Assembly (NCBI GenBank): GCA_027005735.1
Contig: JALTLF010000218.1
Span: 22,935-86,934, forward strand
Reading direction: 5' to 3'
Length of the DNA: 64,000 nt
Source: Chromatiales bacterium
GTDB lineage: Bacteria; Pseudomonadota; Gammaproteobacteria; CAMYNG01
The notes below the pieces were generated by a model. The model saw only the letters and a program-made list of their open reading frames with translations. It searched no databases and was not told the origin of the DNA. Below are positions 32,639 through 62,513 of the stretch, piece by piece (within the stretch, counting starts at the first letter, position 1; each line of letters opens with the position of its first letter). Position numbers and translations under genes: made by a program.

Positions 32639-32689
32639 GCGCCTGGCACGGCGTTTGCCGGTGTCCGTCTCCGTGTCAGGACGCCAGCC

Positions 32690-33511: not shown

Positions 33512-33553
33512 TTTGACTACCGAGGCACATCAAACCAGAAGCAGGAAATAACG

Positions 33554-37017: not shown

Positions 37018-37311
37018 CGCGCGCACGCGGATCTTGCCGCAGCACATGCACAATTGTGGTGCGTGGAGATGGGGCCAGGCGGCCGGGCGGGCACGTTTCG
37101 CCTGTGCCTGTATCAGGACTGGGGTTTCGCGTATGGTTTGCGCTAGAATTACCCGGCCGACCGCCCATGCCGGTTTCCCCGGGAAGGGCGTAGGATAGCC
37201 GGGGCCCGCACAGTGCCAGCGGGCGGGGCAGCTGGAACACCAACCCCAATATAGACTTATGATGGTTTTTCCCGATCGCCCCCGTGGGCGTCAATGCTGG
37301 AGGAAGTCACC

Positions 37312-37959
37312 ATGATCAGGGTCCTGCTGGTGGATGACCACGATCTGGTGCGTACCGGGATCCGGCGCCTGCTGGAGGACGTCAACGATATCGAGATCGT
37401 CGGCGAGGCGGCCAGTGGCGAGGAGGCGGTCAACCAGGCACGGACGCAGATGCCCGACGTGGTGTTGATGGATCTCTCCATGCCGGGCATGGGGGGGATC
37501 GAGGCGACGCGCAAGCTGCTGCAACACCATCCCGATATCCGCGTCATCGTGGTGACCATGCACGACGACGAACTCTATCCCCAGCGGCTGCTCAAGGCCG
37601 GCGCGCGCGGCTATCTCACCAAGGGGGCCAGCGCCACCGAGATCGTGCGTGCCATCCGCGAGGTCATGGCCAACCGCCGTTACCTGAGTCCCGACGTCGC
37701 CCAGCAGATCGCCCTGTCCACCTCCACCGATGGCGTCGCCTCACCCTTTGCCAACCTCTCCGAACGCGAGCTGCAGGTCATGATGATGCTCATGGAAGGC
37801 TGCAAGATCGGCGACATCTCCGAGCGCCTGTGCCTGAGTCCCAAGACCGTCAGCACCTACCGCTACCGGCTGTATGACAAGCTCGGCGTGAACAACGACA
37901 TGGAACTGGCGCGGCTGGCCATCCTGCACGGCGTGGTGGAGGGCAACGGCCCGCACTGA
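37312..37959 (+). CDS. uvrY: NarL/FixJ-family response regulator UvrY/GacA/SirA orthologue
   Basis: MIRVLLVDDHDLVRTGIRRLLEDVNDIEIVGEAASGEEAV...VVLMDLSMPGMGGIEATRKL and a LuxR HTH (ERELQVMMMLMEGCKIGDISERLCLSPKTVSTYRYRLYDKLG) are colinear with E. coli UvrY. Confidence 0.85.
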   Translation: MIRVLLVDDHDLVRTGIRRLLEDVNDIEIVGEAASGEEAVNQARTQMPDVVLMDLSMPGMGGIEATRKLLQHHPDIRVIVVTMHDDELYPQRLLKAGARGYLTKGASATEIVRAIREVMANRRYLSPDVAQQIALSTSTDGVASPFANLSERELQVMMMLMEGCKIGDISERLCLSPKTVSTYRYRLYDKLGVNNDMELARLAILHGVVEGNGPH

Positions 37960-41181: not shown

Positions 41182-42309
41182 TTAATTGCTGCAAGCCGCC
41201 TGGAAGCGGGCCTTGGCGGCGCCGTTGTCCAGAACGTCTCTTACCAGGTTGGCCGCGCTGACCATGTCCTTCGCGCGACCCAGATGGTGAAGCACGATGG
41301 CACCACCATAAATCAGTGAATCCCGGGCGGGACCGGGGCTGCCCGCCAGCGCCGCGAGACCGTTTTCCGCCGCGCGCTCGGCGGCGGCATCGCTGTCCAG
41401 GCTCATGGCCCGGTTGTCGCCGGCCGCGGCCTGGGGCAGATCCGCCGGCAGGGGCGTGGCGCGCGTCTCGCTCTGGATGCCGATGTCCCCCGGCGCAATG
41501 ACCCGGGGCTGTTCCTCGCCGCCCTCGTGGCAGGCAAAGACCTTCGCCTCCTGCTGCAGGGACGGGATGATACCACCTTCCACGCCCCGGATGATGGCCG
41601 CGCTGTGGAAACCCGCCTCGCGGGCGAGGGACGCGTAGATGGGTGGATAGGCCTTGTGGACGTAGCCGGTGATCAGGTGCGTGCGGCGGCGTCCGCGCAG
41701 CGGGCCGAGCAGCACCTCCACGGTGGTCAGCACGGTGCGCTTGACCATGGTGGTGCGCAGGGGCACCAGGTCGTGGAGCGGCCGGCAGAAGGCGCGCTGG
41801 TCCACATAGCTCCAGCCGATGTTCGTATCGGCGAGGCGCGCTGCCGCCGTGGCCGGATCGAGATCCACCGGTGCGCCGGCGGCGCGCAGGACCTTGCGGT
41901 GGGTGATGCCGAACTTGGGTCCCACCGCCTCCAGGCCGTGGCTCACCGTGGCGAGACCGCAGGCGGCCAGCACGGCGGGCAGGAAGGGGGAGGCGGGCAG
42001 GCCGCGACTCCAGCCGTCGTAGGGATCCGCCAGATCCACCACCTCGTCCACCTCGGCGGTGGTGATGTCGGCGGCGTCGATGAGGGCGCGCAGGACGCCG
42101 CGGTTCTCCTCGTCGGTCTCGCGCTTCATGCGCATGGCGATGAGCAGAATGGCCGTCTGCACGGGATCGGCCTCGCCACGCAGGATGGTGGCCATGGCCT
42201 CGCGGGCCTCGTCGAGGCCGAGATCCTTGCTATACTCCGGGCCGGTGGCAACCTTCTGGATGCAGGCACGGAGCTGGAGCTGTGCGTCTGTCAGCGTGTC
42301 AGTTGTCAT
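41182..42309 (-). CDS. Anthranilate phosphoribosyltransferase-family protein (TrpD2/YbiB-like)
   Basis: GT3 N-terminal helical domain (DPVQTAILLIAMRMKRETDEE) and TrpD-like core (GTGGD-equivalent region ITGYVHKAYPP). Start at MTTDTL within ORF 41182..42411. Confidence 0.6.
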   Translation of the reverse strand: MTTDTLTDAQLQLRACIQKVATGPEYSKDLGLDEAREAMATILRGEADPVQTAILLIAMRMKRETDEENRGVLRALIDAADITTAEVDEVVDLADPYDGWSRGLPASPFLPAVLAACGLATVSHGLEAVGPKFGITHRKVLRAAGAPVDLDPATAAARLADTNIGWSYVDQRAFCRPLHDLVPLRTTMVKRTVLTTVEVLLGPLRGRRRTHLITGYVHKAYPPIYASLAREAGFHSAAIIRGVEGGIIPSLQQEAKVFACHEGGEEQPRVIAPGDIGIQSETRATPLPADLPQAAAGDNRAMSLDSDAAAERAAENGLAALAGSPGPARDSLIYGGAIVLHHLGRAKDMVSAANLVRDVLDNGAAKARFQAACSN

Positions 42310-42518
42310 TGAAATCCTTGTAATTCTCCCACGCGACCCCCAGCGGGCGCGGGCGCGGCAAGTATACCCAAGGCAAAAGAGCGTCATTATACCCCTATAG
42401 GGGTAGTTCATTGATTTCCCTGATTTCCTGCTGCGCGGGGGACGGATTTCAGGTTAAAATCGCCGTCCGCAAAATTTAGTGAATTAGTCGGATACTCCAC
42501 GGAGAACCCATCGGCATC

Positions 42519-42950
42519 ATGAGCAGTACAGAAGATACCCAGATGAGCCTGGAGAGCGGCATCGCCGCCTTCGAGGCGAAGCATTTTTCCACCGCCATGC
42601 AGCTGCTTTCGCCGCTGGCGGAGGCCGGCAATGCCGAGGCCCAGTACCGCCTCGCCATCATGTGCCAGAACGGCCTCGGCGTGGCGCAGAATCAGGCCCT
42701 GGGGGTGAAGTGGATGCGGGCCGCCGCCGAACAGGGGCTGGCCATTGCCCAGCACGGCCTGGGTTTCATGTACCTCGAGGGCGAGGGCGTGGAAAAGGAC
42801 GGCGAACAGGCGGTCGCCTGGTTCCGCAAGGCCGCGGAGCAGGGACTGGTGGGCTCCCAGGCCACCCTGGGGCGCATGTACGAGGAGGGTATCGGCGTGG
42901 AACAGGATGCCGAGGAAGCCCGCAAATGGTACGAAAAAGCCGGATTTTGA
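42519..42950 (+). CDS. Sel1-repeat (TPR-like) protein
   Basis: Four Sel1 repeats (AEAQYRLAIMCQNGLGVAQN..., AIAQHGLGFMYLEGEGVEKD..., VGSQATLGRMYEEGIGVEQDAEEARKWYEKA). Confidence 0.8.
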   Translation: MSSTEDTQMSLESGIAAFEAKHFSTAMQLLSPLAEAGNAEAQYRLAIMCQNGLGVAQNQALGVKWMRAAAEQGLAIAQHGLGFMYLEGEGVEKDGEQAVAWFRKAAEQGLVGSQATLGRMYEEGIGVEQDAEEARKWYEKAGF

Positions 42951-43012
42951 CGTATTTTCGCCGCAGATCGACGATACTGTTTCCTGTGAGCCAGCCGTAG
43001 CCCCACCGTCGT

Positions 43013-44161
43013 ATGGAATTATCCAAAGAAGACAGCCTGCGCCTGCACGTGTTGCTCAACCAGTCCCTCAAGGCGGTGCGTATCGACGAGGGGGCCATGG
43101 TGCTCCACGCGCTCACGGACCGCGGCGCGGCGCAGGTGCCCCTCAACCCCAACTGCCGCGACGAGCAGTACCTGCGGCTGGTCCGGGAGTTGCTCTCCAC
43201 CCACGTGCTGGGTTCGCCCGGGGGCTACCCGGTGTTTCTGCGCCGCTGGACGCGTATGGGACAGGCTCGCGCTGAAAGCCTGGACAAGCTGCTGCTGCTG
43301 GGTGAACCGGAAGCGGTGGTGGCCGTGGTTCACGCGGAGGGCCTGACCAACGAGCTGGCCCGCCGGGCATGGTGGATCATGCCCACGGCGGACAATGCGC
43401 GGCGCATGCTGGAGCGCGAGGACGTGGTACGCGGCGACATGGGGCCGGAACTGGCGGCCTTCCTGGTGGAATTTTTGCCCTTCGAGGAAGACTCGCGGGA
43501 CATTCTCGACTCCATCCGCCTCGTCCTGCAGCCGGGACTCATCGACGAGGCCACGCGGGACAAGCTGTGGCGGCGGGCGCGACAGAAATCGGTATACTAC
43601 GTGGGGTTTTTGAGCGGCGCGCCCCACACGCTGCCGGAACAGGCGGCGCCCCATCCGCTGCGCGAGGCCCTGCAGCCGGATGCCGATGCCGCGGCGCCGC
43701 TGGCGGAACTGGTGACGCTGATGCGCCAGGTCCTCGATGCCCCCGCGCAGACCTTCCTGCGGGTGGCGCTGGAGGCCATGCGCAAGCCGCGTGACCAGGA
43801 GACGGTGATCGCCCTGTTCAATGCCATCGGCCGGTATTTCCGCCCCTGCGAGCAGGTGCCACGCCAGGACACCATCGAGGCGCAGGTGGCCGCCGTGGAC
43901 GCCGCGCTGGCGGACGGGGACAATGAGACCCTGGCGCAGTTTCAGGCCCGTTATCCGGCCCATGGCGGGATGCTGCGGGCGGCGATGATCATCGGGGGTC
44001 TCTCGGACAGGATGCTCTCGCCCATCCTGTCGCGCACCGACGCCATGGGCAGCGTCATGCGCCGCAAGCTGGAGCCCGTGATGACGCCCGTGAGTGAACA
44101 GCTACAGGTATTACGCCCCGACGGGGGGCAGCGCGGCAGGCGCAGCGGGGCGCGAGGATGA
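43013..44161 (+). CDS. Conserved hypothetical protein (382 aa)
   Basis: Long GC3-biased ORF. Its stop overlaps the start of the next ORF (ATGA), so the two probably form an operon. Confidence 0.55.
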   Translation: MELSKEDSLRLHVLLNQSLKAVRIDEGAMVLHALTDRGAAQVPLNPNCRDEQYLRLVRELLSTHVLGSPGGYPVFLRRWTRMGQARAESLDKLLLLGEPEAVVAVVHAEGLTNELARRAWWIMPTADNARRMLEREDVVRGDMGPELAAFLVEFLPFEEDSRDILDSIRLVLQPGLIDEATRDKLWRRARQKSVYYVGFLSGAPHTLPEQAAPHPLREALQPDADAAAPLAELVTLMRQVLDAPAQTFLRVALEAMRKPRDQETVIALFNAIGRYFRPCEQVPRQDTIEAQVAAVDAALADGDNETLAQFQARYPAHGGMLRAAMIIGGLSDRMLSPILSRTDAMGSVMRRKLEPVMTPVSEQLQVLRPDGGQRGRRSGARG

Positions 44162-44706
44162 ATACGCTGAGCGTGGCCAAGGTGGCCCTGTCGCTGCGTC
44201 TGCGCATCCACCCCAACACCTTCGAGCGTTTCCTGCCGGCCTCGCCGGTGCGCGTCGGCGAGGAACTGGCGGAACTGGTGGACGGCATGGCCCGCCGGGA
44301 GGGCCTCGGTTACTACCCGGCGCTGGAATACTTCCGCGACCGCGAGGGCTTCGACGGTGATCTCCTCGATGCGGTGGAGCACATCGCCTGGGTGGCCACC
44401 AGCCTGGTGCGCGAGGAGGTGCAGATGAAACTGCGGCCGCTGTTTTCCAGCGTGCGCATCGAGGGGATCCAGTGCCTGGCCTTTACCCTGCCCACGGTAC
44501 GCCCGGGACAGGCCAATGCGCTGCAACGCCTGGCGATGCACTACACGCCGGACGCGGTGAAGCTGGACCTGACGCTGTCGCTGCTGCGCAAGGACACGCC
44601 GCGCGAGGGCCTGGAGAAATTTGCCGCCCACGTTGTGGAGCGCTGGCTGAAAGATTCCTTTGCAACCTTTGATATCACCTCGAGCCATCGTGTCGAGGCC
44701 GAATAG
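44158..44706 (+). CDS. Conserved hypothetical protein (182 aa)
   Basis: Translationally coupled to 43013..44161. No known motif. Confidence 0.5.
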   Translation: MNTLSVAKVALSLRLRIHPNTFERFLPASPVRVGEELAELVDGMARREGLGYYPALEYFRDREGFDGDLLDAVEHIAWVATSLVREEVQMKLRPLFSSVRIEGIQCLAFTLPTVRPGQANALQRLAMHYTPDAVKLDLTLSLLRKDTPREGLEKFAAHVVERWLKDSFATFDITSSHRVEAE

Positions 44707-44724
44707 AACGGGAGAACCCTGAAC

Positions 44725-44982
44725 GTGCCTGAAGTCCTCATGTACTGTACCGAGACTTGTCCCTTTTGCCAGCGCGCCCTGCGCCTGCTGGAGAAGAAGG
44801 GCGTGACCCCCGTGCGGATCGACGTCGACGACGATCCGGGCAAGTGGGAGGAGATGGAGAAACGCACCGGGCGCGACACCGTGCCGCAGATCTACATCGG
44901 TGAACGCCACGTGGGCGGTTTCGACGACCTCGTGGAACTGGACATGGACGGCGAACTGGATCCGCTCCTCGGACAGGAGTAG
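44725..44982 (+). CDS. grxC: Glutaredoxin 3
   Basis: MPEVLMYCTETCPFCQRALRLLEKKGV (CPFC active site), TVPQIYIG. Confidence 0.9.
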   Translation: MPEVLMYCTETCPFCQRALRLLEKKGVTPVRIDVDDDPGKWEEMEKRTGRDTVPQIYIGERHVGGFDDLVELDMDGELDPLLGQE

Positions 44983-45002
44983 GCGCGGGAGAACCCCCTG
45001 TT

Positions 45003-46460
45003 ATGGATTTTTTACCCATATTCATTGATATCCGCCACAAGCCGGTGCTGGTGGCGGGTGGCGGCAAGGTGGCGGCGCGCAAGGTGCGCCTGCTGCGCAA
45101 GGCCGGCGGCGAGGTCACCGTGGTGGCGCCGGAACTGTGCGAGGAACTGGCGGAACAGCGCGCGGCGGGCCACATCCGCCATGTGGCGCGCAAGTTCGAG
45201 GCCGCCGATCTGGATACGCCGGTGCTCATCATCGCCGCCACCGATGACCGCGAGGTCAACCGGGCGATCTCCGAGGGCGCTCGTGCCGCGCGCGTGCCGG
45301 TCAACGTGGTGGACGATCCGGAACTGTGCGGGTTTATCATGCCCTCCATCATCGATCGATCGCCGGTACAGATCGCCATCTCCACCGGCGGTTCCTCGCC
45401 GGTACTGGCGCGCCTGCTGCGCTCCAAGCTGGAGAGTTGTACCCCCGCCACCTACGGCAAGCTGGCCACCCTGGTGAATGACTACCGCGACCGGGTCAAG
45501 GAACGTTTTGCCGACGAGTCACAGCGCAAGCAGTTCTGGGAACAGATCCTCGAGGGTGAGGTGGCGGAACTGGTGTTCGCCGGCAAGGAGAAGGCCGCCC
45601 GCGAGGCGCTGTCGGCCGCCATCGCGTCCGCCGATCCCAGCGGCATGCCGAAGGGCGAGGTCTACCTGGTGGGTTCCGGTCCCGGCGATCCCGATCTTCT
45701 TACCTTCCGCGCCCTGCGCCTGATGCAGCAGGCCGACGTGGTGATCTATGATCGCCTGGTCTCGAAGCAGATCCTCGAGCTGGTGCGGCGCGACGCGGAA
45801 CTGGTCTATGCCGGCAAGGAACGGGACAACCACACCCTGCCACAGGAGCATATCAACCAGCTACTGGTGAAATATGCCCGCAAGGGTTATCGCGTATTGC
45901 GCCTCAAGGGCGGAGATCCCTTCATCTTCGGTCGCGGGGGCGAGGAGATCGCTACCCTCATGGAGGAGGGGATCGGCTTCCAGGTGGTGCCGGGGATCAC
46001 CGCCGCCGCCGGCTGCGCCTCCTATGCGGGGATCCCGCTGACCCACCGTGATCACGCGCAGAGTTGCGTCTTCGTCACCGGCAATCTCAAGGACGGTTCG
46101 CTGGATCTCAACTGGCAGGCGCTGGCCCATCCCAACCAGACCATCGTCTTCTACATGGGCCTGCATGGCGTACAGACCATTTGCACAAAACTCGTGGAAC
46201 ACGGGCTGGCCGCCGATACGCCGGCGGCGCTGGTGCAACAGGGGACGACGCCCAACCAGCGGGTGTTCACCGGCACGCTGGCAAGCCTGCCCGAGCTGGT
46301 GGAAAGCAACGACGTCAGGCCACCGACGCTGATCATCGTCGGTTCGGTGGTTTCACTGCAGGACAAGCTCGCGTGGTTCGAGCCGGTGACCACGGAGACC
46401 GAACAGAAGGACATCTTCAGTAGCAATCCCGGCCGTGACGGGAAAAGCGAAAAGAGGTAG
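45003..46460 (+). CDS. cysG: Siroheme synthase CysG (precorrin-2 dehydrogenase/ferrochelatase fused to uroporphyrinogen-III C-methyltransferase)
   Basis: N-terminal Rossmann VLVAGGGKVAARK plus the SUMT domain (GEVYLVGSGPGDPDLLTFRALRLMQQADVVIYDRLV, VRLKGGDPFIFGRGGEE). Confidence 0.9.
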   Translation: MDFLPIFIDIRHKPVLVAGGGKVAARKVRLLRKAGGEVTVVAPELCEELAEQRAAGHIRHVARKFEAADLDTPVLIIAATDDREVNRAISEGARAARVPVNVVDDPELCGFIMPSIIDRSPVQIAISTGGSSPVLARLLRSKLESCTPATYGKLATLVNDYRDRVKERFADESQRKQFWEQILEGEVAELVFAGKEKAAREALSAAIASADPSGMPKGEVYLVGSGPGDPDLLTFRALRLMQQADVVIYDRLVSKQILELVRRDAELVYAGKERDNHTLPQEHINQLLVKYARKGYRVLRLKGGDPFIFGRGGEEIATLMEEGIGFQVVPGITAAAGCASYAGIPLTHRDHAQSCVFVTGNLKDGSLDLNWQALAHPNQTIVFYMGLHGVQTICTKLVEHGLAADTPAALVQQGTTPNQRVFTGTLASLPELVESNDVRPPTLIIVGSVVSLQDKLAWFEPVTTETEQKDIFSSNPGRDGKSEKR

Positions 46461-46465
46461 CTGCC

Positions 46466-46789
46466 ATGTTAGACTTTGACTCGACAGGATGCGGCGAGGC
46501 GGAACACTTCGCGCTCCAGGTACTGGGCACCAGCATGGAACCGGAGTTCCCGGATCAGTGTATCGTCATCATCGATCCCGCCGGGGTCGCCGAGGATGGC
46601 GCCTATGTGATCGCCAATTACCGGGACGAACTGATCTTCCGCCAGCTGCGGATCATCGACCAGCGCTACTACCTGGTTCCGCTCAACGATGCCTTCCCCA
46701 CGCATGAGATCGCCGGACCCGAGGAAGTGAAGGGGATCATCGTGCAGCGTGCCGGCACGCGGCGCTCGATGCACAAGCACTATACCTGA
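46466..46789 (+). CDS. Stand-alone S24 (LexA/UmuD-like) peptidase domain protein
   Basis: GTSMEPEF (nucleophilic Ser) and a downstream Lys region (VKGIIVQRAG). No DNA-binding N-domain. Starts 6 nt after the cysG stop. Confidence 0.6.
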   Translation: MLDFDSTGCGEAEHFALQVLGTSMEPEFPDQCIVIIDPAGVAEDGAYVIANYRDELIFRQLRIIDQRYYLVPLNDAFPTHEIAGPEEVKGIIVQRAGTRRSMHKHYT

Positions 46790-46795
46790 AGCCGT

Positions 46796-47284
46796 TCAGG
46801 CAGCCTGTGGTCCAAGCTGTTCCTTGCTGACCTTCGAGGCGAAGAAGGCGTCGGCGGCCTCGATATCGACGACATTGCCGTTCTCGTCCACCAGTTCCTG
46901 TTCATAGTCGTTCCAGCCGCGCAGGCCGGTCTTGAGCGAGCGCACGGATCGGTAGCCCATGCGTTGCATGACCTCACAGGCCAGCGCGCTGCGGTTTCCG
47001 GAGCGACAGATGACGATGATGTCGCGTTCGCGCGCCTGTACCAGGTCGGGAATGGTCTCTTCGTAACCCCAGTCACAGGCGCTCTCGAGGATCCCGCGCG
47101 GCACGTTGATGGAGTTGCGGATGTGCATGGCGGCATATTCGTGGGGCTCGCGAACGTCCAGCAGCAGGACATCGCTGTAGCCCGCGATCAATTCCTCCAG
47201 GTCCCAGGGAAAGATCTCTTCGACGTGTTCGAGACTCTCTGCCACGAGTTGCGAAAAACTCATTGTCGGACTTGCTTCAGACAT
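46796..47284 (-). CDS. Rhodanese-domain sulfurtransferase
   Basis: LLLDVREPHEY...CRSGNRS (catalytic Cys loop). Start at ATG MSEASP with an AAGAGGA SD; the longer track ORF begins at a TTG. Confidence 0.75.
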   Translation of the reverse strand: MSEASPTMSFSQLVAESLEHVEEIFPWDLEELIAGYSDVLLLDVREPHEYAAMHIRNSINVPRGILESACDWGYEETIPDLVQARERDIIVICRSGNRSALACEVMQRMGYRSVRSLKTGLRGWNDYEQELVDENGNVVDIEAADAFFASKVSKEQLGPQAA

Positions 47285-47924
47285 TGCGTGTAATTCCTCT
47301 TTCAACGGCGATCACCGCGGCTTCGACGCGGGAGTGTACATCAAGTTTACGCAGGATGGCCTTGACATGAAGCTTGACGGTGCCATCCGATATACCGAGG
47401 TTGCGCGCGATAACCTTGTTGCTCTGACCCTCGGCAAGATGGCACAGGATCTCCATCTCGCGCGGGGTGAGACTGGAAAACGGCGACTCCGGCACCTCGA
47501 CCTCCTGGTCTCCGTCCTGTACCACCTTGGCCAGTACGCCGGTGAGGGTGGGGGCGACCACGGTCTTGCCCGTGGAGATGTCCTTGAGGACCTGTTCCAG
47601 TTCCTCGGGTTCGATGTCCTTGAGCAGGTAACCCTGGGCGCCATTGCGCAGGGCATCGACGAGATCCTTTTCATCGTCGCTGGTGGTGAGCATGACGATG
47701 GGCATCTCGGCGCCATTCTTGCGCAGCTCGCGCAGTACTTCGAGGCCGGACATGTCGGGCATGCGCATGTCGAGCAGGATAACGTCGGGGTTCTGTTCCT
47801 CGGCAAGACGCAGGCCCTCCTGCCCCGAGCCGGCCGTGCCGACGACGGTGATGCCGCGACTCTCAAGCAGGGTCTGCAGGCCGACGCGGAACAGGGCGTG
47901 GTCGTCGATGAGTAATACGCGCAT
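47277..47924 (-). CDS. NarL/FixJ-family response regulator
   Basis: REC domain (LLIDDHALFRVGL...VILLDMRMPDMSG) plus LuxR HTH (LTPREMEILCHLAEGQSNKVIARNLGISDGTVKLHVKAILRKL). Confidence 0.88.
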   Translation of the reverse strand: MRVLLIDDHALFRVGLQTLLESRGITVVGTAGSGQEGLRLAEEQNPDVILLDMRMPDMSGLEVLRELRKNGAEMPIVMLTTSDDEKDLVDALRNGAQGYLLKDIEPEELEQVLKDISTGKTVVAPTLTGVLAKVVQDGDQEVEVPESPFSSLTPREMEILCHLAEGQSNKVIARNLGISDGTVKLHVKAILRKLDVHSRVEAAVIAVERGITRNV

Positions 47925-47935
47925 AGTTTCTATCG

Positions 47936-49567
47936 TTAAAGTGTCGTTGACAGGCCGCCGGGGCCCTTGTGCTCGTCCGCGAAGGGATAGCGGAAGGTAA
48001 GGATAACACGTGTGCCTTCGCCGGGCTCGCTCTCCAGGCTCAGATCGCCATGCAGCTTCTGTGCGCGCTCGCGCATGATGGAAATGCCGATGTGGTTGCC
48101 GCCGACCCCGGCACGCGCGCTGATGTCTTCACCCAGGCCCACGCCATCGTCTTCCACCAGTACCAGGTAATTGTTGTCGGCCTCCTGACGCAGGAGAATG
48201 CGCACGGCGCGCGCCGAGCTGTGCTTGCGGATGTTGGACAGGGATTCCTGCACGATGCGCAGGATCTGCAACTCCAGGTTGGCCGGCAGCTTGGCCTCAT
48301 TCCATTCGTCCTGAAGGAAAACGAGGATATTGTTGTGGGCGCGGTATTTCTTGATCATGTCCTGCAGCGCGGGTACCAGGCCGCGCTCATCCATGGGGGT
48401 GCGGAAGTGATTCAGCAGCTCGCGCAGTTCCTGGTTGGCCTCCTCGATACTGTTCTTGAGCTGGATGACCTCGCTGTTGGAAATCGTCGACCAGGTGGCG
48501 AGGGATTCCTCCATGGTGCGGATCTGGAAACGCAAGCTGGCCAGCGTCTGCGCCAGTGAGTCGTGCAGTTCATGCGCCAGCAGGTTGCGTTCCTCGATGA
48601 TGGACAGGCGACGGGCTTCGTCGTCCAGACGCGCCTTTTCGATGGCCATGCCAAGGTGGCGGCCGATACTGGTGAGCAGTTCCTGCATGTCGCCCTGCAT
48701 GAGGGAATCCGGGTTGCTGGTATCGACGAAGAGATTGAAGACGCCGAGGGGCCGGCCCTGGTAGTCGAGGGGGACCGAGATCATCTCCGTGTTACCATCC
48801 TGGAACAGGGGCTGGCCGACGAATTTTTCACAGTCGGCATGGCGCGTGTGGCACACCGCCGTGCCCTCGTTGAGGGAACTGCCGCAGAAACAGCGATCTA
48901 CCGGGACAAGGGATTCTTCCTTCAGGACTTCCTCGCGAAAGCCGGCGCTGGCCACCATGCGTAACTGGTTGTTTTCGGTGAGCAGGCGGATCGAACCCGC
49001 GCGCGCGCCCAGTAGGCTCATGAGGATATCGAGGAAACGGCTGAGGAGATCTTCCACGGTAAGCGCGCCGTTGATATTGGCGGCAACCTCGTAGAGGATC
49101 TTCAGCGAACGGCTCTTCTGTTCGAGGCTCTCGGTCTGCTTGCGAATGCGGACCTCCATTTCCTGCGACAGGGTCTGCAGATCCTCGCTGAGGGCATTGA
49201 TGTCCCGCGCCAGCTCGGTGAATTCCCCATGGCCGGGGATGGGCAGGCGGGCGTTGAGGTGCCCGGCGCGCATGCGCAGTGCCCAGTTGCGCATGTGAGA
49301 GAGCGGCGTGAAGAGATCGGCGCGGATGCGCTGCGCGATGACCACCAGCAGCAGGACGGAGACGCCGATCAGCGCGAGTTGCAGCCATATTACGGGCCAG
49401 AAGAAGCTCAGCACCAGCGCCAGGAAGGTGAGCCCGAGGCCAAGGAAAGGGACGAACAGGCGGCTCTTGATGAGGCTCAGGCCCTTGTGGCGCCATCCCC
49501 GGGCCGGCGGGATCACCCGTGTGAGGAAATGCTTCCTCTGGCTGTTCGTCTGTACCGCTGCTTTCAT
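47936..49567 (-). CDS. NarX/NarQ-type sensor histidine kinase: 2 TM / HAMP / Cys-rich GAF / HisKA_3 / HATPase
   Basis: Short periplasmic loop, HAMP (LTFLALVLSFF...), GAF containing VDRCFCGSSLNEGTAVCHTRHADC, H-box LAHELHDSLAQTLASL (HisKA_3), then the N and G boxes (ESLSNIRKHS, DDGVGL, GISIMRERA). Confidence 0.85.
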   Translation of the reverse strand: MKAAVQTNSQRKHFLTRVIPPARGWRHKGLSLIKSRLFVPFLGLGLTFLALVLSFFWPVIWLQLALIGVSVLLLVVIAQRIRADLFTPLSHMRNWALRMRAGHLNARLPIPGHGEFTELARDINALSEDLQTLSQEMEVRIRKQTESLEQKSRSLKILYEVAANINGALTVEDLLSRFLDILMSLLGARAGSIRLLTENNQLRMVASAGFREEVLKEESLVPVDRCFCGSSLNEGTAVCHTRHADCEKFVGQPLFQDGNTEMISVPLDYQGRPLGVFNLFVDTSNPDSLMQGDMQELLTSIGRHLGMAIEKARLDDEARRLSIIEERNLLAHELHDSLAQTLASLRFQIRTMEESLATWSTISNSEVIQLKNSIEEANQELRELLNHFRTPMDERGLVPALQDMIKKYRAHNNILVFLQDEWNEAKLPANLELQILRIVQESLSNIRKHSSARAVRILLRQEADNNYLVLVEDDGVGLGEDISARAGVGGNHIGISIMRERAQKLHGDLSLESEPGEGTRVILTFRYPFADEHKGPGGLSTTL

Positions 49568-49675: not shown

Positions 49676-51115
49676 TCAGTCGGTTATTGCGTAGATGCCG
49701 GGGCGGAATATGGCCTTGCCGGACTGCAGGAACTCGGCGGTATAGGGATCGACGGCATTCTCCAGCTCCTCGCACCAGGAGGGGTGGCTGTAGCTGATGT
49801 CCTTGAGGAACCACAGGCCGCGCGGCGACTGGCAGGCGGCGGTAAGCATCTGGATCTGCTCGCCGGCCTCGGGGCCGACGATGCAGCCGCCCAGCATCTG
49901 GCCGGTTTCCTCGTCGTGGATCACCTCCACGAAACCCTCGGCGTCGTGGCGTCCCAGAGCCTTGGCCGAGCCGGCGTAATTGGCGCGCGCCACGTCGGGT
50001 TCGAAGCCGGCGGACTCGGCCATGTCCTCGCTGAGACCGACGGCAGCGATCTCCAGCGCGGTATCGATGACCACCGGCACGCGGCGGTAGTTGCGCGCCA
50101 GCTCGTTGCCGTTCACGGCGTTGGTTGCCGCCACCTTGGCATCGTGCAGGGCCGCGTTGGCGGTCATGGGACCTTCCTTGACGTCACCCACGGCGTAGAT
50201 CCCGGCGACGCTGGTCTCGAGAAACTCGTTGGTTTCGATGAAGCCGCGCGCGTCACGCTGGATGCCCGCGGCGTCAAGACCAAGATCCGCGGTGCGCGGT
50301 TCCCGTCCGATGGCCACAAGCACACAGTCGAATTCCGCCTGGCTGTCATCGGAGAAGCCAAGCGTGATCGTCTCCCCCTGTCGCTGGCAGCGGGTGACCG
50401 CCGTCTCCAGGCGGTGGTGGATGCCCAGGCGATCGAACTTGCGCTGCAACATGCCGCTGGCGCGCAGCGGGATCTCCGGTTTGTTGAGCAGGCGTGGCGC
50501 GGTGTCGACGATAGTCACCTCGCTGCCGAACTGATGACACAGATAGCCCAGTTCCACACCGATGGCGCCCCCGCCGACGATGAGTATGCGGCGGGGAAGC
50601 GCCCCGCTGATACGCATGAAATCGCCGGAATGGATGATCTTCTCGCCGTCGTGACGACAGACGGGATGTGGCCGGGGGCGCGAGCCGGTGGCAAGGATGA
50701 TGCGCTCGGCCTGCAGATGAAGCGTTTTCCCTTCGCCGCATACCTCAACGCTGCGGGGATCGAGGAGGCGCGCCGCGCCGGCGAACATGTTGACGCCGAG
50801 ATGGCGCAACCAGAGGGGGAAGTGGCCACGGATACCGCTGATGACTTCTTCCTTGTGGCGCCAGGCGCCGGCGAAATCACCCTGGGTGGTACCCTTCAGG
50901 CCACGGCCCTGGAGTGAATTGACGTCCTCGATGAGGCTGGCGATATAGAGCATCGCCTTCTTGGGTATGCAACCCTGGTTGAGGCAGGTGCCACCCGGCA
51001 AGCCCTTTTCGATCAATGCCACGCGCGCACCGAGATGCGCCGCGGTCACCGCGGCCTTGTAGCCGCCCGGACCACTGCCAATGACGATGAGATCGAAGCG
51101 GGATCGCGAAGTCAT
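49676..51115 (-). CDS. Class-I pyridine-nucleotide-disulfide oxidoreductase (dihydrolipoamide-dehydrogenase-like flavoprotein)
   Basis: DLIVIGSGPGGYKAAV (FAD site), redox-active GGTCLNQGCIPKK, NAD(P) site ILIVGGGAIGVELG, C-terminal dimerisation domain with an HPSWCEE variant of the His-Glu dyad. It begins 12 nt after the dsrR stop, so it is probably the last dsr-operon gene. Confidence 0.85.
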   Translation of the reverse strand: MTSRSRFDLIVIGSGPGGYKAAVTAAHLGARVALIEKGLPGGTCLNQGCIPKKAMLYIASLIEDVNSLQGRGLKGTTQGDFAGAWRHKEEVISGIRGHFPLWLRHLGVNMFAGAARLLDPRSVEVCGEGKTLHLQAERIILATGSRPRPHPVCRHDGEKIIHSGDFMRISGALPRRILIVGGGAIGVELGYLCHQFGSEVTIVDTAPRLLNKPEIPLRASGMLQRKFDRLGIHHRLETAVTRCQRQGETITLGFSDDSQAEFDCVLVAIGREPRTADLGLDAAGIQRDARGFIETNEFLETSVAGIYAVGDVKEGPMTANAALHDAKVAATNAVNGNELARNYRRVPVVIDTALEIAAVGLSEDMAESAGFEPDVARANYAGSAKALGRHDAEGFVEVIHDEETGQMLGGCIVGPEAGEQIQMLTAACQSPRGLWFLKDISYSHPSWCEELENAVDPYTAEFLQSGKAIFRPGIYAITD

Positions 51116-51126
51116 GAGGGCGGTTT

Positions 51127-51441
51127 CTACTCGGCAGGCGGCGTGTAGTTGGGATCGTTTGGGTTGAGAAACACGAACTCCCTGTTGCCGTCGTCGAGTT
51201 CAACGAAGTCGATGGTCATACCGACGACCAGGTCGAGACTGACCGGTGAAACGACGATATCGATACCCTCGGACTTGAAATGGTTGTCGCCATCACGGGA
51301 CTCATCGTCGAAACCGATGCCGTAGTGGATGCTGCCATCGGGGTTACGTTGTGCGGCAATTCGCAGGGCCATGCCCTCCATGCGTCCTTCCTTGGCGGAA
51401 TGGCGAATTTGTGCGGCGGCTTCCGGGGTTATGGTGATCAA
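51127..51441 (-). CDS. dsrR: DsrR (IscA/HesB-like protein lacking the Fe-S cysteines)
   Basis: MITITPEAAAQIRH...GMALRIAAQRNPDGSIHYGIGFDD...DIVVSP: A-type-carrier fold with no conserved Cys, in the expected position after dsrN. Confidence 0.8.
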   Translation of the reverse strand: MITITPEAAAQIRHSAKEGRMEGMALRIAAQRNPDGSIHYGIGFDDESRDGDNHFKSEGIDIVVSPVSLDLVVGMTIDFVELDDGNREFVFLNPNDPNYTPPAE

Positions 51442-51465
51442 TGTGAGTACCTCGAAGTGGATTGT

Positions 51466-52878
51466 TCAACAAATGTCGGCCTGGCGGGCCTCTGCCTTGA
51501 CCGAGGCGACAAAGGCCAGAAAGCGCGTCACCCAGGGGTTCTGCCAGGTGTGACGTAGATGGCTGTAGTTGCCCAGCACGTTGCGATAGACGATACCGTC
51601 GTGGCCGTCCCCAATCCCCTTGCCGCGCTTCATGCGATAGGCAAAGCGCAGATCCGGGGCGAGTGCCTCCAGCGCGGAGTAGTGGAACTCGTGGGCAGGC
51701 ACCGGTCGTGCGGGCTTGATGGCAGCCGGGACGGGCCAGGGGAAATCCGCGGTCTCTTCCAGGAACACGTAGCCGCGGCCCTGGGGTCGCGCGTGCATGA
51801 CCGTATCGGCCGGCAGGACCCCGGCCATGGGGTACACGGCTTCCCCCCAGCGCAGGCTGCGGCTCAGGTACATGAGTCCGCCACACTCGGCATAGACCGG
51901 CAGTCCGGCCTCGATGGCGGCGGCAATGGCCTTGCGCAGGCCCTCGTTGGCGCTGATCTGCGCCGCATGGGTCTCGGGGAAACCGCCGCCGATGAACAGG
52001 CCGTCGAGGGGGGGCAGGGCGGTGTCGCGCATGCTGTTCAACCGGACCAACTGTGCACCCTGATCGCGGAAGGCCTGCAGATCGCCGGGGTAGTAGAAAC
52101 CGAAGGCGTCGTCCTGGATGATGCCGATACGCAGACCGTCAAAGCGGGCCGACGGCCCTGGCTCCGGGGCCTGCATCGTCGGGACGGCAAGGGCGGGCGC
52201 CTGCTCGGCGACGCCAATCAGCGCGTCGAGCTCCACCTCGGCAGCGAGACGTCGGGCGAAGGTGTCGATGATCTCGTTGGAACCCGCCTGTTCGTTGCTC
52301 GGCACCAGCCCAAGGTGACGCTCGTCGATATGCAGGCTCTCATCACGCCCCACGGCACCCAGCACCGGGAGATCGGTATAGCGCTCGATAATGGCGCGCA
52401 GCTTGCCCTCATGACGGCTGCCGCCCACCTGGTTGAGGATCACGCCGCGGATGGCGACTTCGGGATCGAAGGCCTGGAAACCCTGCAGTAGGGCCGCCAC
52501 GCCCCGCGTCATGCCACGGGTATCGACCACCATCACCACCGGACTGGCAACGAGTTTCGCCAACGCGGCGTTGCTGTTGCTGCCGTCGATATCGACGCCG
52601 TCGTGCAGGCCCTTGTTGCCCTCGATCAGGCTGAGATCGGCATCGCGCGAGTAGTGGGCAAGCTTGTAACGGATCTCGTCACTGCCCTGGGTGTGGAAAT
52701 CGAGGTTGTGGCAGGGGCGGCCGGCGGCCTGGCCCAGCCACAGCGGGTCGATATAGTCAGGCCCCTTCTTGAAGGGTTGGACCGCCAGGCCACGGCGCCT
52801 GAGCGCCGCGCACAGACCAACGGCGATGGTGGTCTTGCCGGAGGACTTGTGCGCCGCGGAGATCAGCAGGTGAGCCAT
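51466..52878 (-). CDS. dsrN: DsrN, siroheme amidase (cobyrinic acid a,c-diamide synthase homologue)
   Basis: MAHLLISAAHKSSGKTTIAVGL (CobB/CbiA P-loop) and a C-terminal glutamine amidotransferase domain (ECGGLMYL). Confidence 0.85.
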   Translation of the reverse strand: MAHLLISAAHKSSGKTTIAVGLCAALRRRGLAVQPFKKGPDYIDPLWLGQAAGRPCHNLDFHTQGSDEIRYKLAHYSRDADLSLIEGNKGLHDGVDIDGSNSNAALAKLVASPVVMVVDTRGMTRGVAALLQGFQAFDPEVAIRGVILNQVGGSRHEGKLRAIIERYTDLPVLGAVGRDESLHIDERHLGLVPSNEQAGSNEIIDTFARRLAAEVELDALIGVAEQAPALAVPTMQAPEPGPSARFDGLRIGIIQDDAFGFYYPGDLQAFRDQGAQLVRLNSMRDTALPPLDGLFIGGGFPETHAAQISANEGLRKAIAAAIEAGLPVYAECGGLMYLSRSLRWGEAVYPMAGVLPADTVMHARPQGRGYVFLEETADFPWPVPAAIKPARPVPAHEFHYSALEALAPDLRFAYRMKRGKGIGDGHDGIVYRNVLGNYSHLRHTWQNPWVTRFLAFVASVKAEARQADIC

Positions 52879-52935
52879 ATTCCAGCACCCTTGCCAGGGT
52901 CGACCTCACTGACCCGATCACCGTGGTGGCGGCGA

Positions 52936-54168
52936 TCAGGCCGATGCGGTATCGGCGGCCCCGGACTTGTGATAAGGATCGACCATGTTGTCTGCCAGGC
53001 TGATGGGCAGGAACTTGAGCACCTTCACCGCGAACAGCACCATGAACAGGGCCACGGCCACGCCACCCAGTCCCAGCATGACCTCGGGCCAGCTCGGCGA
53101 ATAGGGTGCCACCACGCCCTCGGTAAAGGTACTGGAGGCCTCGTAACCGGGGAAGATCACCAATGGGTAGGCCTGGCCGCCAATCACGATGACGTAGACC
53201 TGCGCGAGGCCGCCAATGATGACGAGCAGGGCGGCAAGACCGATGAGCTTGCGGTTTTTGCCCCAGCTCGGGTGGTAGAGCAGGGCCAGCGGTACCAGCG
53301 AGCCCAGGACGATCTGCACCCACCAGAACAGGGTCGTGTAGATGCCCCCGTCGCGCAGGATGAAGGCCTCCACGCCGTGATGCTCGGTGGCATAGAGATT
53401 GGTCAGGTGGAAGGCCAGCACGAAATACAGGACGCCGGCGATAAACACCCCGAGCAGGTTCTTCAGCCGCCGGATGGCGAGATCACCCAGGGGACGCCGG
53501 GTACCATTGTAGAGACCCATCAGCAGCAAAATGAAGATCGCCAGTCCGAACGAGAAGGACATGGCGATGAACAGGGGCGCCATGATGGCGGCATCGTAGC
53601 CCTGGCGCGCCACCAGGAATCCAAAGATGGAGCCGGTACCGGTGGTCAGGATGAGGCGCCACAGGAAGGCGAAGAAGCCGACCGGCTTGCTGTACTTGCC
53701 CAGCGAGTGCTGCATCATGGTCCACAGGTAGACGGCCACGATGGCAAAGAACCCGTTGTACAGGATGATGTTCCACGCAAAGATGGATTTGAAGTTGTAA
53801 TAGGTCATTGCGACGACGAGCCGCTCGGGACGTCCCAGGTCGAGCACCAGTACCGTCAGGCCACCGGCGAGCAGGCAGATGGCAAGCAGGCCGGAGAGCC
53901 GCGCCAATGGCTTGTACTGGTACTTCCCGAACACGGAGGCAATAGAGGCGACGTTGAGGGCGCCGGAAGCAGCCACGATGAGAAAGATGGCGAACACGTG
54001 CGGAGTTCCCCACACGATCTGGTTGCTCATGCCCGTGATCCAGTGGCCTTCATGCTCCATGAGGTACCAGCCATAGCCGGCGACGGCCATCAGGCCGACG
54101 AGGGCAAGCAGAATGGCCCAGTAACCGCCGGAACGTCCTTCGATCTCCTGGTAGTCGTAGTGATTCAT
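52936..54168 (-). CDS. dsrP: DsrP (NrfD/PsrC-like integral membrane quinone-interacting subunit)
   Basis: 410 aa with about 10 TM helices, of the NrfD family; position after dsrO. Confidence 0.85.
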   Translation of the reverse strand: MNHYDYQEIEGRSGGYWAILLALVGLMAVAGYGWYLMEHEGHWITGMSNQIVWGTPHVFAIFLIVAASGALNVASIASVFGKYQYKPLARLSGLLAICLLAGGLTVLVLDLGRPERLVVAMTYYNFKSIFAWNIILYNGFFAIVAVYLWTMMQHSLGKYSKPVGFFAFLWRLILTTGTGSIFGFLVARQGYDAAIMAPLFIAMSFSFGLAIFILLLMGLYNGTRRPLGDLAIRRLKNLLGVFIAGVLYFVLAFHLTNLYATEHHGVEAFILRDGGIYTTLFWWVQIVLGSLVPLALLYHPSWGKNRKLIGLAALLVIIGGLAQVYVIVIGGQAYPLVIFPGYEASSTFTEGVVAPYSPSWPEVMLGLGGVAVALFMVLFAVKVLKFLPISLADNMVDPYHKSGAADTASA

Positions 54169-54174
54169 AACCTG

Positions 54175-54930
54175 CTAAATCCCCTTGTAATGGATGCCCG
54201 GGTTGAGTCCCAGGTCTGCACGGATTTGCCGTGATCCAAATTTCTTGAGAGTCTGTGATAGGCGGCTGTCGGGATCGTTGAGATCGCCGAAGACAAAGGC
54301 CGCGTGACCTTCCTCGTTACAGGCCTCGGCGCAGGCCGGGACGGCGTTTTCACCGTCGCGGTCAACACGGTGCACGCACAGGGTGCAGGACTCCACCGTG
54401 CCCTTGCCGCGAGGCGCGTTCACGCTCTGATCCTGCAGGACTTCATGGATGAAGGATCGTGCCTTGTAGGGGCAGGCCATCATGCAGTAGCGACAGCCGA
54501 TACAGATATGCTTGTCCACCAGGACGATGCCATCCGCGCGGCGGAAGGACGCCCCGGTGGGACAGACATCCGCGCAGGGCGGCGTTTCGCAGTGCTGACA
54601 CAGCATGGGCAGGGAATAGGTCGCACCGGTGGCCTTGTGCTTGAGGTTGACCTTGCGGATCCACTGCGCCTGCTGGTCCGGGCGGGAGTTTACCTCGTTG
54701 GAACCCCAGCCGTTTTCCTGCTGGCAGGCGGTGACACAGGCGTTACAGTCCTTGGCGCACTTGTTGGTATCGATCAACATGCCCCAGCGATTCTTCGCGC
54801 TGACGGGTTCGTCGGCCGGTTTGCCGTGGGCCAGATCGACAAGAAATACGCCGGGCGCGACGGAAAGGCCAGTGAGGGCGGCGGCCTGACCAAGGAACTT
54901 ACGCCGCGTGGCGTTGACGTCTTTGCTCAT
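54175..54930 (-). CDS. dsrO: DsrO (Tat-exported 4x[4Fe-4S] ferredoxin)
   Basis: Tat motif TRRKFLGQAAALTGLSVA and multiple CxxCxxCxxxCP clusters (CAKDCNACVTAC, CQHCETPPCADVCP, CIGCRYCMMACP, CTLCVHR). Stop overlaps the dsrJ start. Confidence 0.88.
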   Translation of the reverse strand: MSKDVNATRRKFLGQAAALTGLSVAPGVFLVDLAHGKPADEPVSAKNRWGMLIDTNKCAKDCNACVTACQQENGWGSNEVNSRPDQQAQWIRKVNLKHKATGATYSLPMLCQHCETPPCADVCPTGASFRRADGIVLVDKHICIGCRYCMMACPYKARSFIHEVLQDQSVNAPRGKGTVESCTLCVHRVDRDGENAVPACAEACNEEGHAAFVFGDLNDPDSRLSQTLKKFGSRQIRADLGLNPGIHYKGI

Positions 54931-55415
54931 TCTTCCTCCTCCCTGGTGGCGACACGCACTGCTTCATCCACGAGGTCAAGCGGCTGGGCAAGGGGCGTCG
55001 GACGTCCTTCGGCGCCAGTCAACTCCAGCGGCTGCCCGGTGGGACCATCGTTGTGGCATTCGAAGCAGTCGATGGTGACACCGGCGTAATTGTGACAGGA
55101 GGAGCAGAAGTGCTCGTCGCTGCCATACCGAACCCGCTCCTGTCCTGCCTCGGCCTTCGGCACGTGGCAATTCAGGCACTGCGCAAGGGAATGTTGCGGC
55201 GTGCGAATACCCTCATGCATGGTGGCGTCACGTTGGTGCAGGATGAACTCGAAGTGACGTTTACGCATGACGTCGGTGGGCTCGACACACTTCACGCCTT
55301 TCCCCTTGGGGACCACCGGCACCGGCGTATCCGCCATGGCAGGCAAGGCGAAGGAAAGTAACACCGCCACCAGCAGGGTGGCGATGCGCTTATTGTTATA
55401 ATACAAAGACTTCAT
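54927..55415 (-). CDS. dsrJ: DsrJ (periplasmic triheme cytochrome c)
   Basis: Signal peptide and three CxxCH motifs (CLNCH, CSSCH, CFECH). Confidence 0.88.
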   Translation of the reverse strand: MKSLYYNNKRIATLLVAVLLSFALPAMADTPVPVVPKGKGVKCVEPTDVMRKRHFEFILHQRDATMHEGIRTPQHSLAQCLNCHVPKAEAGQERVRYGSDEHFCSSCHNYAGVTIDCFECHNDGPTGQPLELTGAEGRPTPLAQPLDLVDEAVRVATREEEE

Positions 55416-55432
55416 TGGGCTTCCCCGTTGGC

Positions 55433-57373: not shown

Positions 57374-57454
57374 GTCTGTATCTCCTGTGAATTATCCGGA
57401 CCGTGTCCGATTAACAACTAAAACTCAAAATTGGATGAATTGCGTATCCAGTTA

Positions 57455-58978: not shown

Positions 58979-59030
58979 GATATTTTCCTCGATCCTGTTC
59001 TGCGCGCTATGGCAGTTTCGTTATGCTTTT

Positions 59031-59786: not shown

Positions 59787-59862
59787 CCTAGTAAAATCCT
59801 CTGTTTTTATACTTCGATTAGGAAAGAGGGGGTTGAAAACCCCCTCTCGTCGTTCCTAAGCG

Positions 59863-60195: not shown

Positions 60196-60227
60196 TGTTT
60201 AGATCTCCTCGTTAGCAGATTGAATCG

Positions 60228-60536: not shown

Positions 60537-60548
60537 AACAAAACTCCC

Positions 60549-60956: not shown

Positions 60957-60970
60957 AATTCCCCCTACGC

Positions 60971-61363: not shown

Positions 61364-61387
61364 TCGTTTTTACCTCGATAAATCGTC

Positions 61388-62464: not shown

Positions 62465-62513
62465 TGTAATCTCCTGAAATTATTGAATTCGTTGTAAGTC
62501 GAATGCGTAATGC

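Follow-up and report, generated by a model that had tools for sequence, protein, structure and literature searches.

The stretch of DNA analysed here (the window) is a 64 000-nucleotide (nt) portion of contig JALTLF010000218.1 from a Chromatiales bacterium. It carries on its minus strand the genes of the reverse dissimilatory sulfite reductase (dsr) pathway, dsrABEFHCMKLJOPNR (51127–63764; Pfam, NCBIfam and tblastn), followed on the same strand by genes for a sensor histidine kinase of 543 amino acids (aa; 47936–49567), a response regulator of 215 aa (47277–47924) and a single-domain rhodanese of 162 aa (46796–47284), and the dsr operon is proposed below as the target of the kinase–regulator pair. 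An earlier note on this DNA, made from the letters alone, had named these last three open reading frames (ORFs), and all of them were present at these coordinates on the minus strand. It had also placed the pair immediately downstream of the dsr operon, which needs correcting, as a gene for a flavoprotein disulfide reductase of 479 aa (49676–51115, minus strand) lies between dsrR (51127–51441) and the kinase gene. A terminator scan found no terminator-like sites between 46400 and 51500, from dsrR to the rhodanese gene. Proteins identical to those of the window were found in two further metagenome-assembled genomes (MAGs), GCA_027053495.1 and GCA_027058725.1.

The kinase was found from Pfam, NCBIfam and its homologues to be a relative of NarX without the periplasmic domain. 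Pfam matches above gathering scores placed a HAMP domain at residues 87–131, GAF at 169–310, HisKA_3 at 326–392 and HATPase_c at 432–526, with the H-box LAHELHDS (His335) in HisKA_3 and a short, cytoplasmic N-terminus. Hydropathy analysis showed residues ~35–85 as a single unbroken hydrophobic stretch, equivalent to two membrane spans without a loop between them, and a membrane hairpin with no periplasmic loop was accordingly placed at residues ~35–80 (49328–49465, minus strand). The spans of homologues of this short type begin at about residues 40 and 70, as against about 20 and 180 in canonical NarX. In the match to the NCBIfam NarX model, kinase residue 59 is the first to align (model positions 152–584); as the model is covered only from position 152 onward, the periplasmic sensor is absent, which bears out the earlier description of a kinase with almost no periplasmic domain. 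Compared with NarX and NarQ of Escherichia coli, the kinase possesses HAMP, a central GAF-like module, HisKA_3 and HATPase_c (Pfam and alignment), and its central module carries the NarX-type cysteine cluster. It lacks the periplasmic four-helix sensor (the P-box and ~120–150 residues between the spans), and it scored below the NCBIfam equivalog cut-offs for both NarQ (218.9 bits against 553) and NarX (178.7 bits against 578).

When 5.8 billion proteins were searched for homologues of the kinase, 3,921 relatives were found. The best 120 of these (44–90% identity) were ~545 aa long with the architecture of the window kinase, and the named hosts among them were sulfur oxidisers (Ectothiorhodospiraceae, Sulfurivermis and Thiohalomonadaceae). 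Kinase loci were then collected by scanning one genome per species, giving 80 loci, one of which held a truncated kinase fragment and was excluded. The kinase had the short hairpin N-terminus (short-type) at 48 of the 80 loci (37–53% identity over the best tblastn segment), while 31 encoded a canonical NarX with ~150 periplasmic residues (30–35% identity), mostly from Betaproteobacteria. A neighbour-joining tree of the HAMP-to-C-terminus region was built from the 48 short-type kinases and 33 canonical sequences (the 31 together with E. coli NarX and NarQ), and all 48 fell cleanly apart from all 33; identity over the same region was 0.43 inside each group and 0.29 between short-type and canonical sequences. 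Since both the tree and the identities within and between groups separate the two types, the kinase is, on these comparisons, a member of a distinct NarX-derived clade without the nitrate-binding domain. Within the kinase, strong conservation is seen in the N-terminal cytoplasmic motif PPxxGWRxK and in the HAMP domain but not in the membrane spans.

The response regulator is 46% identical to E. coli NarL and combines a receiver (REC) domain, carrying the phospho-acceptor Asp, with a C-terminal GerE/LuxR helix-turn-helix (HTH), as seen from Pfam (Response_reg, GerE) and alignment. As with the kinase, it lies below the NCBIfam equivalog cut-offs (NarL 236.6 bits against 250, NarP 171.3 against 343). 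Residue D52 aligns, in an invariant column, with D59, the phosphorylation site of NarL. The recognition helix reads TVKLHVK against TVKVHVK in NarL, so that of K188, V189 and K192, the DNA-contact residues of this helix in NarL–DNA structures, both Lys are retained and Val is replaced by Leu. Across the short-type regulator subfamily the HTH is almost unvarying (LGISDGTVKLHVKAILRKL) and differs from that of canonical betaproteobacterial NarL (AESTVKIHVQNILKKL). An HTH that is near-invariant and specific to the subfamily would fit a DNA target that is likewise conserved and subfamily-specific.

The genomic association of the pair with dsr was assessed using tblastn with the window proteins against the kinase loci. 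Of the 45 short-type loci that could be assessed, 25 had genes of the dsr pathway immediately before the kinase gene. These loci span Gammaproteobacteria and Betaproteobacteria, and the order is commonly dsrN-dsrR-kinase-regulator, at times with a disulfide reductase gene interposed. Further complete dsr clusters, anchored on DsrL, gave a similar picture, the kinase/regulator pair being present in six of seven (Ectothiorhodospiraceae bacterium 2226, Thiohalophilus sp., an Acidiferrobacterales MAG and three others). The earlier suggestion that the position of the pair is that of a dedicated regulator of dsr is thus supported by 25 of 45 loci in two classes and by these six clusters.

The earlier note had also called for a search for NarL-type heptamers upstream of dsrA, and this search (TACYYMT heptamers and 7-2-7 inverted repeats) was positive. 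An exact NarL-type 7-2-7 palindrome, none being expected by chance, was found 173–188 nt upstream of the dsrA ATG (63764), at 63937–63952 (TATCCCAATAGGGATA, or TATCCCA-AT-AGGGATA), and is designated Box 1. Two stretches of the window, both in promoter regions, match the pattern TAYCCCNNNNGGGRTA (TAYCCC-N4-GGGRTA) exactly, and 100 shuffles of the window gave no match. A metagenome scan with DsrA yielded 80 dsrA loci with DsrA 80–86% identical to that of the window, and with up to two mismatches allowed Box 1 was present in 77 of them, 163–358 nt upstream of the ATG; the three loci without it are truncated, with less than 240 nt of upstream sequence each. Conservation is confined to the arms, the A/T-rich centre and a 5' A/C, the flanks being unconserved. 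A matrix of the box found essentially one site per 5–22 kb locus, and over the 1.36 Mb of kinase loci, sites of at least 19 bits occurred only upstream of dsrA (L043), of dsrN-dsrR-kinase-regulator (L028) and of cysG (L039). The same layout of boxes was found in the seven further complete dsr clusters, six of them with the kinase/regulator pair. Box and pair stand together on one contig in nine independent genomes, namely the window, L043, Ga0209918_1000144 (L085 with L164), L169–L173 and L175.

Alignment of 78 dsrA upstream regions revealed a second element, Box 2 (CACCCCATAGGTGGGGTA; 63901–63918, minus strand), which repeats the half-sites of Box 1 with a spacer 2 nt longer (consensus cAYCCC-N6-rGGrTA). 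It was followed 21 nt downstream by a conserved −10-like hexamer, TAGACT (63874–63879, minus strand), which reads TAnAnT in relatives. The architecture is fixed throughout the alignment: Box 1, ~16–18 variable nt, Box 2, ~21 nt and TAnAnT. No −35 consensus was found in these 78 regions. Taking the hexamer as the −10 element would centre Box 2 at about −42.5, over the missing −35, and Box 1 at about −77.5, from which we infer an activator-dependent geometry. At napF and yeaR, NarL acts as an activator from 7-2-7 sites at −40 to −49 (PMC4549865). The Box-2-type pattern AYCCC-N6-GGGRT occurs 15 times in the window against 11 expected; as this is no enrichment, no further targets were called from it. 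An autoregulatory box upstream of the kinase was also considered and rejected, as the matrix scan of the 48 short-type loci gave 11 sites of at least 10 bits compared with 7–11 in shuffled sequence.

A further near-ideal NarL 7-2-7 site (TACCCCTATAGGGGTA, or TACCCCT-AT-AGGGGTA) lies at 42390–42405 and differs only in its 2-bp spacer from TACCCCTAAAGGGGTA, the high-affinity reference site used for crystallisation of NarL (PMC4549865). It occupies a divergent intergenic region between a glycosyltransferase-family-3 gene (41182–42309, minus strand) and a plus-strand operon (42519–46789) comprising a Sel1-repeat gene, two genes of unknown function, a glutaredoxin gene, the sirohaem synthase gene cysG (45003–46460, plus strand; Pfam), which is convergent with the rhodanese gene, and an S24-like gene. 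Boxes directly upstream of cysG were found in L039 as well, with a weaker box 49 nt upstream in L163–165. It is likely, judging from these sites, that cysG is co-regulated with dsr.

The GAF domain of the kinase (residues 169–310; 48638–49063, minus strand) was recognised by Pfam, AlphaFold2 and Foldseek. An AlphaFold2 model of residues 145–320 had a standard GAF fold with a mean predicted local distance difference test (pLDDT) score of 80, and Foldseek matched it to generic GAF folds only (template-modelling (TM) scores up to 0.73), among them the GAF structures of DosS/DosT. The four Cys and two His noted earlier in this domain are indeed there: the kinase has four Cys in total (226, 228, 239 and 246), which with H240 and H243 lie in CFCGSSLNEGTAVCHTRHADC, the cluster C226-F-C228-G...C239-H...C246 being encoded at 48830–48892 (minus strand). 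When aligned by sequence with the Nlh2 GAF domain, D-R-C226-F-C228-G falls on the canonical G-E-G-I-x-G loop, so that C226 and C228 take the place of residues of that loop. The proposed check of conservation gave a divided answer. Across the 120 closest homologues, C226, C228, G229 and C246 vary little or not at all, whereas C239 was present in only 27 of 121 sequences (the query and its 120 homologues) and neither H240 nor H243 showed conservation across the 120. Because C226, C228 and C246 are invariant and lie at the position of the GAF ligand loop, they are under strong selection. A further residue, H304, is invariant and sits in the last GAF helix; the comparison with the haem-binding His of DosS/DosT was made at the level of sequence.

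The distribution of the cluster also bears on the claim that it is the sensing site of the dsr system. The motif C-x-C-G...C was found in all 31 canonical NarX proteins with a periplasmic domain, mostly betaproteobacterial, and the cluster is a known NarX signature, a related one occurring in E. coli NarX (PMC3519889, PMC1805755). All three Cys are retained by 34 of the 48 short-type kinases and none by six, of which four are linked to dsr. What stands of the claim is a real and conserved cluster; its assignment as the sensor of dsr is weakened, the cluster being common to canonical NarX and missing from the six. As far as alignments can tell, the cluster is real, under selection and inherited from NarX, and is neither dsr-specific nor indispensable for linkage to dsr. 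Scored against the NreB type, with four Cys in a cytoplasmic PAS domain, the kinase gave no PAS match, its Cys being in GAF. As a separate observation, Chromatiaceae/Sedimenticola-type loci that do not adjoin dsr (L013–L020, L023, L024, L026, L027, L029, L035 and L048) typically have a cluster of four Cys that includes the equivalent of C239 (...GDILC...); the window kinase has four Cys and yet is linked to dsr.

The rhodanese, assigned by Pfam (PF00581, 65.3 bits) and gene call, has the rhodanese fold and the catalytic Cys in a six-residue active-site loop of the form CRxGxR[ST], here CRSGNRS. The motif C-R-[SA]-G-x-R-S was kept in 20 of 20 orthologues aligned, one of them having Ala for Ser. 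Its start is likely to be the ATG at 47284 rather than the TTG at 47305 of the ORF listing, as independent gene calls agree on the former, giving 162 aa. The overlap of the regulator stop with the rhodanese start, also noted earlier, was confirmed (ATGTCTGA, 8 nt over the stop at 47277–47279). The disulfide reductase is a class-I enzyme with the CxxxxC motif GTCLNQGC, and is dihydrolipoyl-dehydrogenase-like, with 375.6 bits against a cut-off of 408.8 for the dihydrolipoyl dehydrogenase model; the same position is likewise filled in L039, L041, L163–165 and L169. Its substrate could be persulfides or polysulfides, or the enzyme could serve to reset the sensor.

Taken together, we consider the pair to be a NarX/NarL-family two-component system in which control of nitrate respiration has been exchanged for control of the reverse dissimilatory sulfite reductase pathway, and would give this reading, built on sequence comparison, a probability of roughly 0.7. 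A dimer of the phosphorylated regulator would, with much the same confidence, bind Box 1 and Box 2 and activate dsr as a class-II-type activator. It would also bind the near-ideal site before the cysG operon, and in this way the supply of sirohaem would be coupled to the synthesis of DsrAB. Because no terminator separates dsr from the kinase gene, transcripts from the dsr promoter may read through into the kinase and regulator genes, and positive feedback would result. The input of the kinase must be cytoplasmic or membrane-borne, with the GAF domain as the most likely sensor. The three conserved GAF Cys might report sulfane sulfur or the redox state of thiols, perhaps via the rhodanese, but this last step is a conjecture that we regard as doubtful.

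Several observations weigh against this reading. Regulator and box are connected throughout by association, a scan for the sigma-70 consensus found no promoter at dsrA or at the kinase gene, and the −10 element and transcription start of dsrA are inferred from conservation only. A box before the kinase gene was found only in L028, where a strong one lies upstream of dsrN-dsrR-kinase. About 20 short-type pairs, as in Thiocapsa, Sedimenticola and Thiodiazotropha, do not adjoin dsr, and the within-genome pairing of regulator and box described above comes from other loci. The main caveat is L174, a complete dsr cluster that has the boxes but no adjacent pair and that ends with dsrR followed by recG; here the regulator gene is missing or lies at another place in the genome. 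With regard to the sensing step, the cysteine cluster is shared with nitrate-sensing NarX and is missing from the six short-type kinases mentioned above, four of them dsr-linked, and a rhodanese gene follows the regulator gene in only 19 of 48 short-type loci. Rhodanese genes accompany 15 of the 34 kinases with the cluster and one of the six without it, numbers too small for any conclusion.

The alternative that survives best concerns the sensing step, and holds that the cysteine cluster came down from NarX as a structural or metal-binding feature, with the input elsewhere. We would place this at somewhat under an even chance. The presence of the motif in 31 of 31 canonical NarX proteins, which sense nitrate periplasmically, argues for it, as does its loss from six short-type kinases (four dsr-linked) together with the lack of conservation of H240 and H243. 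Other inputs can also be named, such as a ligand of the GAF pocket (sulfite or sulfide), the membrane hairpin and HAMP domain responding to the quinone pool, DsrR, the rhodanese or the disulfide reductase; in most dsr-linked loci dsrR is the gene immediately before the kinase, and PPxxGWRxK and HAMP are strongly conserved while the membrane spans are not. Against a purely structural role stand the invariance of C226, C228 and C246 in 120 homologues of 44–90% identity, their place in the canonical GAF ligand loop and the fact that the kinase has no other sensory domain. In one version of cysteine-based sensing, the cluster would sense cytoplasmic sulfane sulfur directly: a persulfide or polysulfide bridge of C226, C228 and C246, loaded by the rhodanese or by persulfidated Dsr carriers, would switch the kinase on and the disulfide reductase would reset it. 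We consider this unlikely. Were it true, a histidine kinase would for the first time have been shown to use a GAF domain for reading persulfide, and the unexplained cysteine cluster of the entire NarX family would gain a function.

It is less likely still that the pair controls something other than dsr, such as the rhodanese, cysG, an ABC exporter or the S24-like gene, and that another dimeric HTH protein binds the dsrA boxes. At about 20 of 45 loci (Thiocapsa sp. KS1, Sedimenticola, Ca. Thiodiazotropha and others) the pair lies beside S24-like, ABC half-transporter, rhodanese and cysG genes and the 10 kb around it hold no dsr gene, boxes are found upstream of cysG too, and in L174 they occur without an adjacent pair. 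However, the boxes are an almost perfect fit to the NarL 7-2-7 consensus, and the cluster has no NarL-like regulator besides that of the pair, whose DNA-reading helix is as invariant as the box itself; box and pair moreover share a contig in the nine independent genomes, and the non-adjacent pairs all come from sulfur oxidisers, which presumably carry dsr elsewhere.

That the pair is an ordinary nitrate/nitrite NarX–NarL system for nitrogen respiration, beside dsr by chance, is very improbable: the top family matches are indeed NarQ, NarX and NarL, homologues are annotated as NarX in their sources and some hosts are denitrifying sulfur oxidisers (Thiohalomonas denitrificans, Sulfuricella denitrificans), but the scores lie far under the NarX/NarQ cut-offs, linkage to dsr is repeated across two classes, and a genuine nitrate sensor was rejected on the absence of the periplasmic nitrate-binding domain, the separate clade and the absence of nitrate-respiration genes from the 64-kb window. 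Allochromatium vinosum has 'NarXL' genes (Alvin_1057/1058), possible orthologues of the window pair, without a nitrate reductase (PMC3368242). In a transcriptome of A. vinosum on pyrite, Alvin_1057/1058 were little changed.

Other features of the dsr locus and its relatives were also recorded. GC-rich hairpins occur in the dsrA leader/promoter region at 63845–63857 and 63903–63921. The second coincides with Box 2, and the first (GGGCCGGGGGCCC followed by a T-run on the plus strand) resembles a terminator for the opposite strand. In L169–L175, dsrA is divergent from a conserved gene set located ~300–570 nt upstream on the opposite strand, which would correspond to a region past window position 64000. 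This set consists of a TauD-family dioxygenase, a small ORF (in most clusters), a PF09559 ('Cas6')-like protein and an ORF of ~67 aa, with a DsrC-like protein of 112–113 aa in six of the seven clusters. As the boxes fall within the intergenic region shared by dsrA and this set, both directions might be under their control. An extra DsrC-like gene (42–47% identical to DsrC) is found just before the kinase in the betaproteobacterial loci L036, L037, L040 and L046, between dsrN and dsrR or, in L036, between dsrP and dsrR. In L043, where the kinase is divergent from dsrA, a lone DsrC-like gene precedes the kinase.

Among the neighbours of the pair, the S24-like gene of the window (46466–46789, plus strand) encodes an S24 peptidase of 107 aa (LexA/UmuD C-terminal domain) with no DNA-binding domain. 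It is a recurrent neighbour of kinase-regulator-rhodanese in ~20 related loci, usually convergent with the rhodanese; in the 48 short-type loci, S24-like genes were counted at 20 and cysG at 14. A fused ABC half-transporter (ABC_membrane and ABC_tran, ~600–620 aa) is a conserved neighbour of the pair in relatives (L017, 7858–9729; L163, 13181–15010; L170, L173 and L175) and is absent from the window. Downstream of the 42390 site, two genes of 382 and 182 aa with overlapping stop and start (43013–44706, plus strand) gave no Pfam or NCBIfam match. Genes of similar length (380 and 192–197 aa) likewise precede glutaredoxin-cysG in L163–165, the likeness being one of length and position. Elsewhere in the window, 31319–37017 encodes a trypsin-like protease with FHA and a 725-aa ORF read from its sequence as a Ser/Thr protein kinase, and 37294–37959 a second NarL/FixJ-type regulator of 221 aa, read in the same way as GacA/UvrY-like; these genes are unrelated to the dsr finding.

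Expression of dsr is induced by reduced sulfur in A. vinosum, and DsrR and DsrS act after transcription. No transcription factor or operator is known to have been assigned to the switching-on of the reverse Dsr pathway. A literature search found no account of the pair or of the dsrA boxes, papers on dsr regulation in subscription journals being beyond its reach. Very probably, the switch that has long been sought for dsr expression is the pair described here. The pair would provide a named candidate regulator, an exact predicted operator and a promoter layout conserved over dozens of uncultured and several cultured lineages, through which the regulation of dsr becomes directly testable. It would also be a clear case of a NarX/NarL system that has shed its periplasmic sensor and been recruited to another respiratory or energy pathway, and offers a candidate link between dsr expression and sirohaem synthesis through cysG. 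The box itself would serve as a cis-element for finding genes co-regulated with dsr in metagenomes.

Comparison with known systems places the pair within a wider family of regulators. DosS and DosT of Mycobacterium, which act with DosR, are also GAF-HisKA_3 kinases without an extracytoplasmic sensor, paired with a NarL-family regulator that has a GC-rich palindrome as target. They are soluble proteins with two GAF domains and bind haem through His; in contrast to the window kinase they have no membrane anchor or HAMP domain, and no conserved His was seen in the pocket region of the window GAF when its homologues were aligned. The Acidithiobacillus two-component systems TspSR and RsrSR tie sulfur-oxidation genes to reduced sulfur. 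The persulfide repressors SqrR, CstR and Hyphomicrobium sHdrR/SoxR do so likewise, by means of a paired-Cys sensor (PMC12423496). In contrast to the window pair, these are ArsR/CsoR-type one-component repressors or sigma-54-type or OmpR-type systems, and their targets are sox, sHdr, tetH and sqr, with none reported for dsr.

NreB, an Fe-S protein in staphylococci, and NreC resemble the window pair in belonging to the NarL family (HisKA_3 kinase and LuxR-type regulator) and in having a cytoplasmic, Cys-bearing sensor domain. The closest functional analogue is NreB–NreC of Bacillus licheniformis, which is sulfide-responsive and activates the sulfur-oxidation genes sqr-pdo from within the gene cluster (PMC9918477). 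However, NreB is soluble with its Cys in PAS, whereas the window kinase is membrane-anchored with its Cys in GAF and its proposed target is dsr rather than sqr-pdo, and beyond the transmitter and receiver modules the two pairs show no specific sequence relationship.

The nearest known relatives are NarX–NarL and NarQ–NarP of E. coli, which share HAMP, the Cys-cluster GAF-like module, HisKA_3 and HATPase_c, a REC and GerE regulator and the TVKxHVK helix. The predicted operators are, as for NarL, inverted heptamers in 7-2-7 arrangement and are nearly the NarL high-affinity site. In contrast to NarX–NarL, the window kinase has no periplasmic four-helix nitrate sensor and belongs to a separate clade with ~29% identity to canonical NarX, the pair lies below all NCBIfam equivalog cut-offs, and its linkage is to dsr and cysG rather than to nar, nap, nir or frd; the predicted half-site is TAYCCC and the second site has 7-4-7 spacing. 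On sequence grounds, then, the window system is one that works like NarX–NarL and descends from it.

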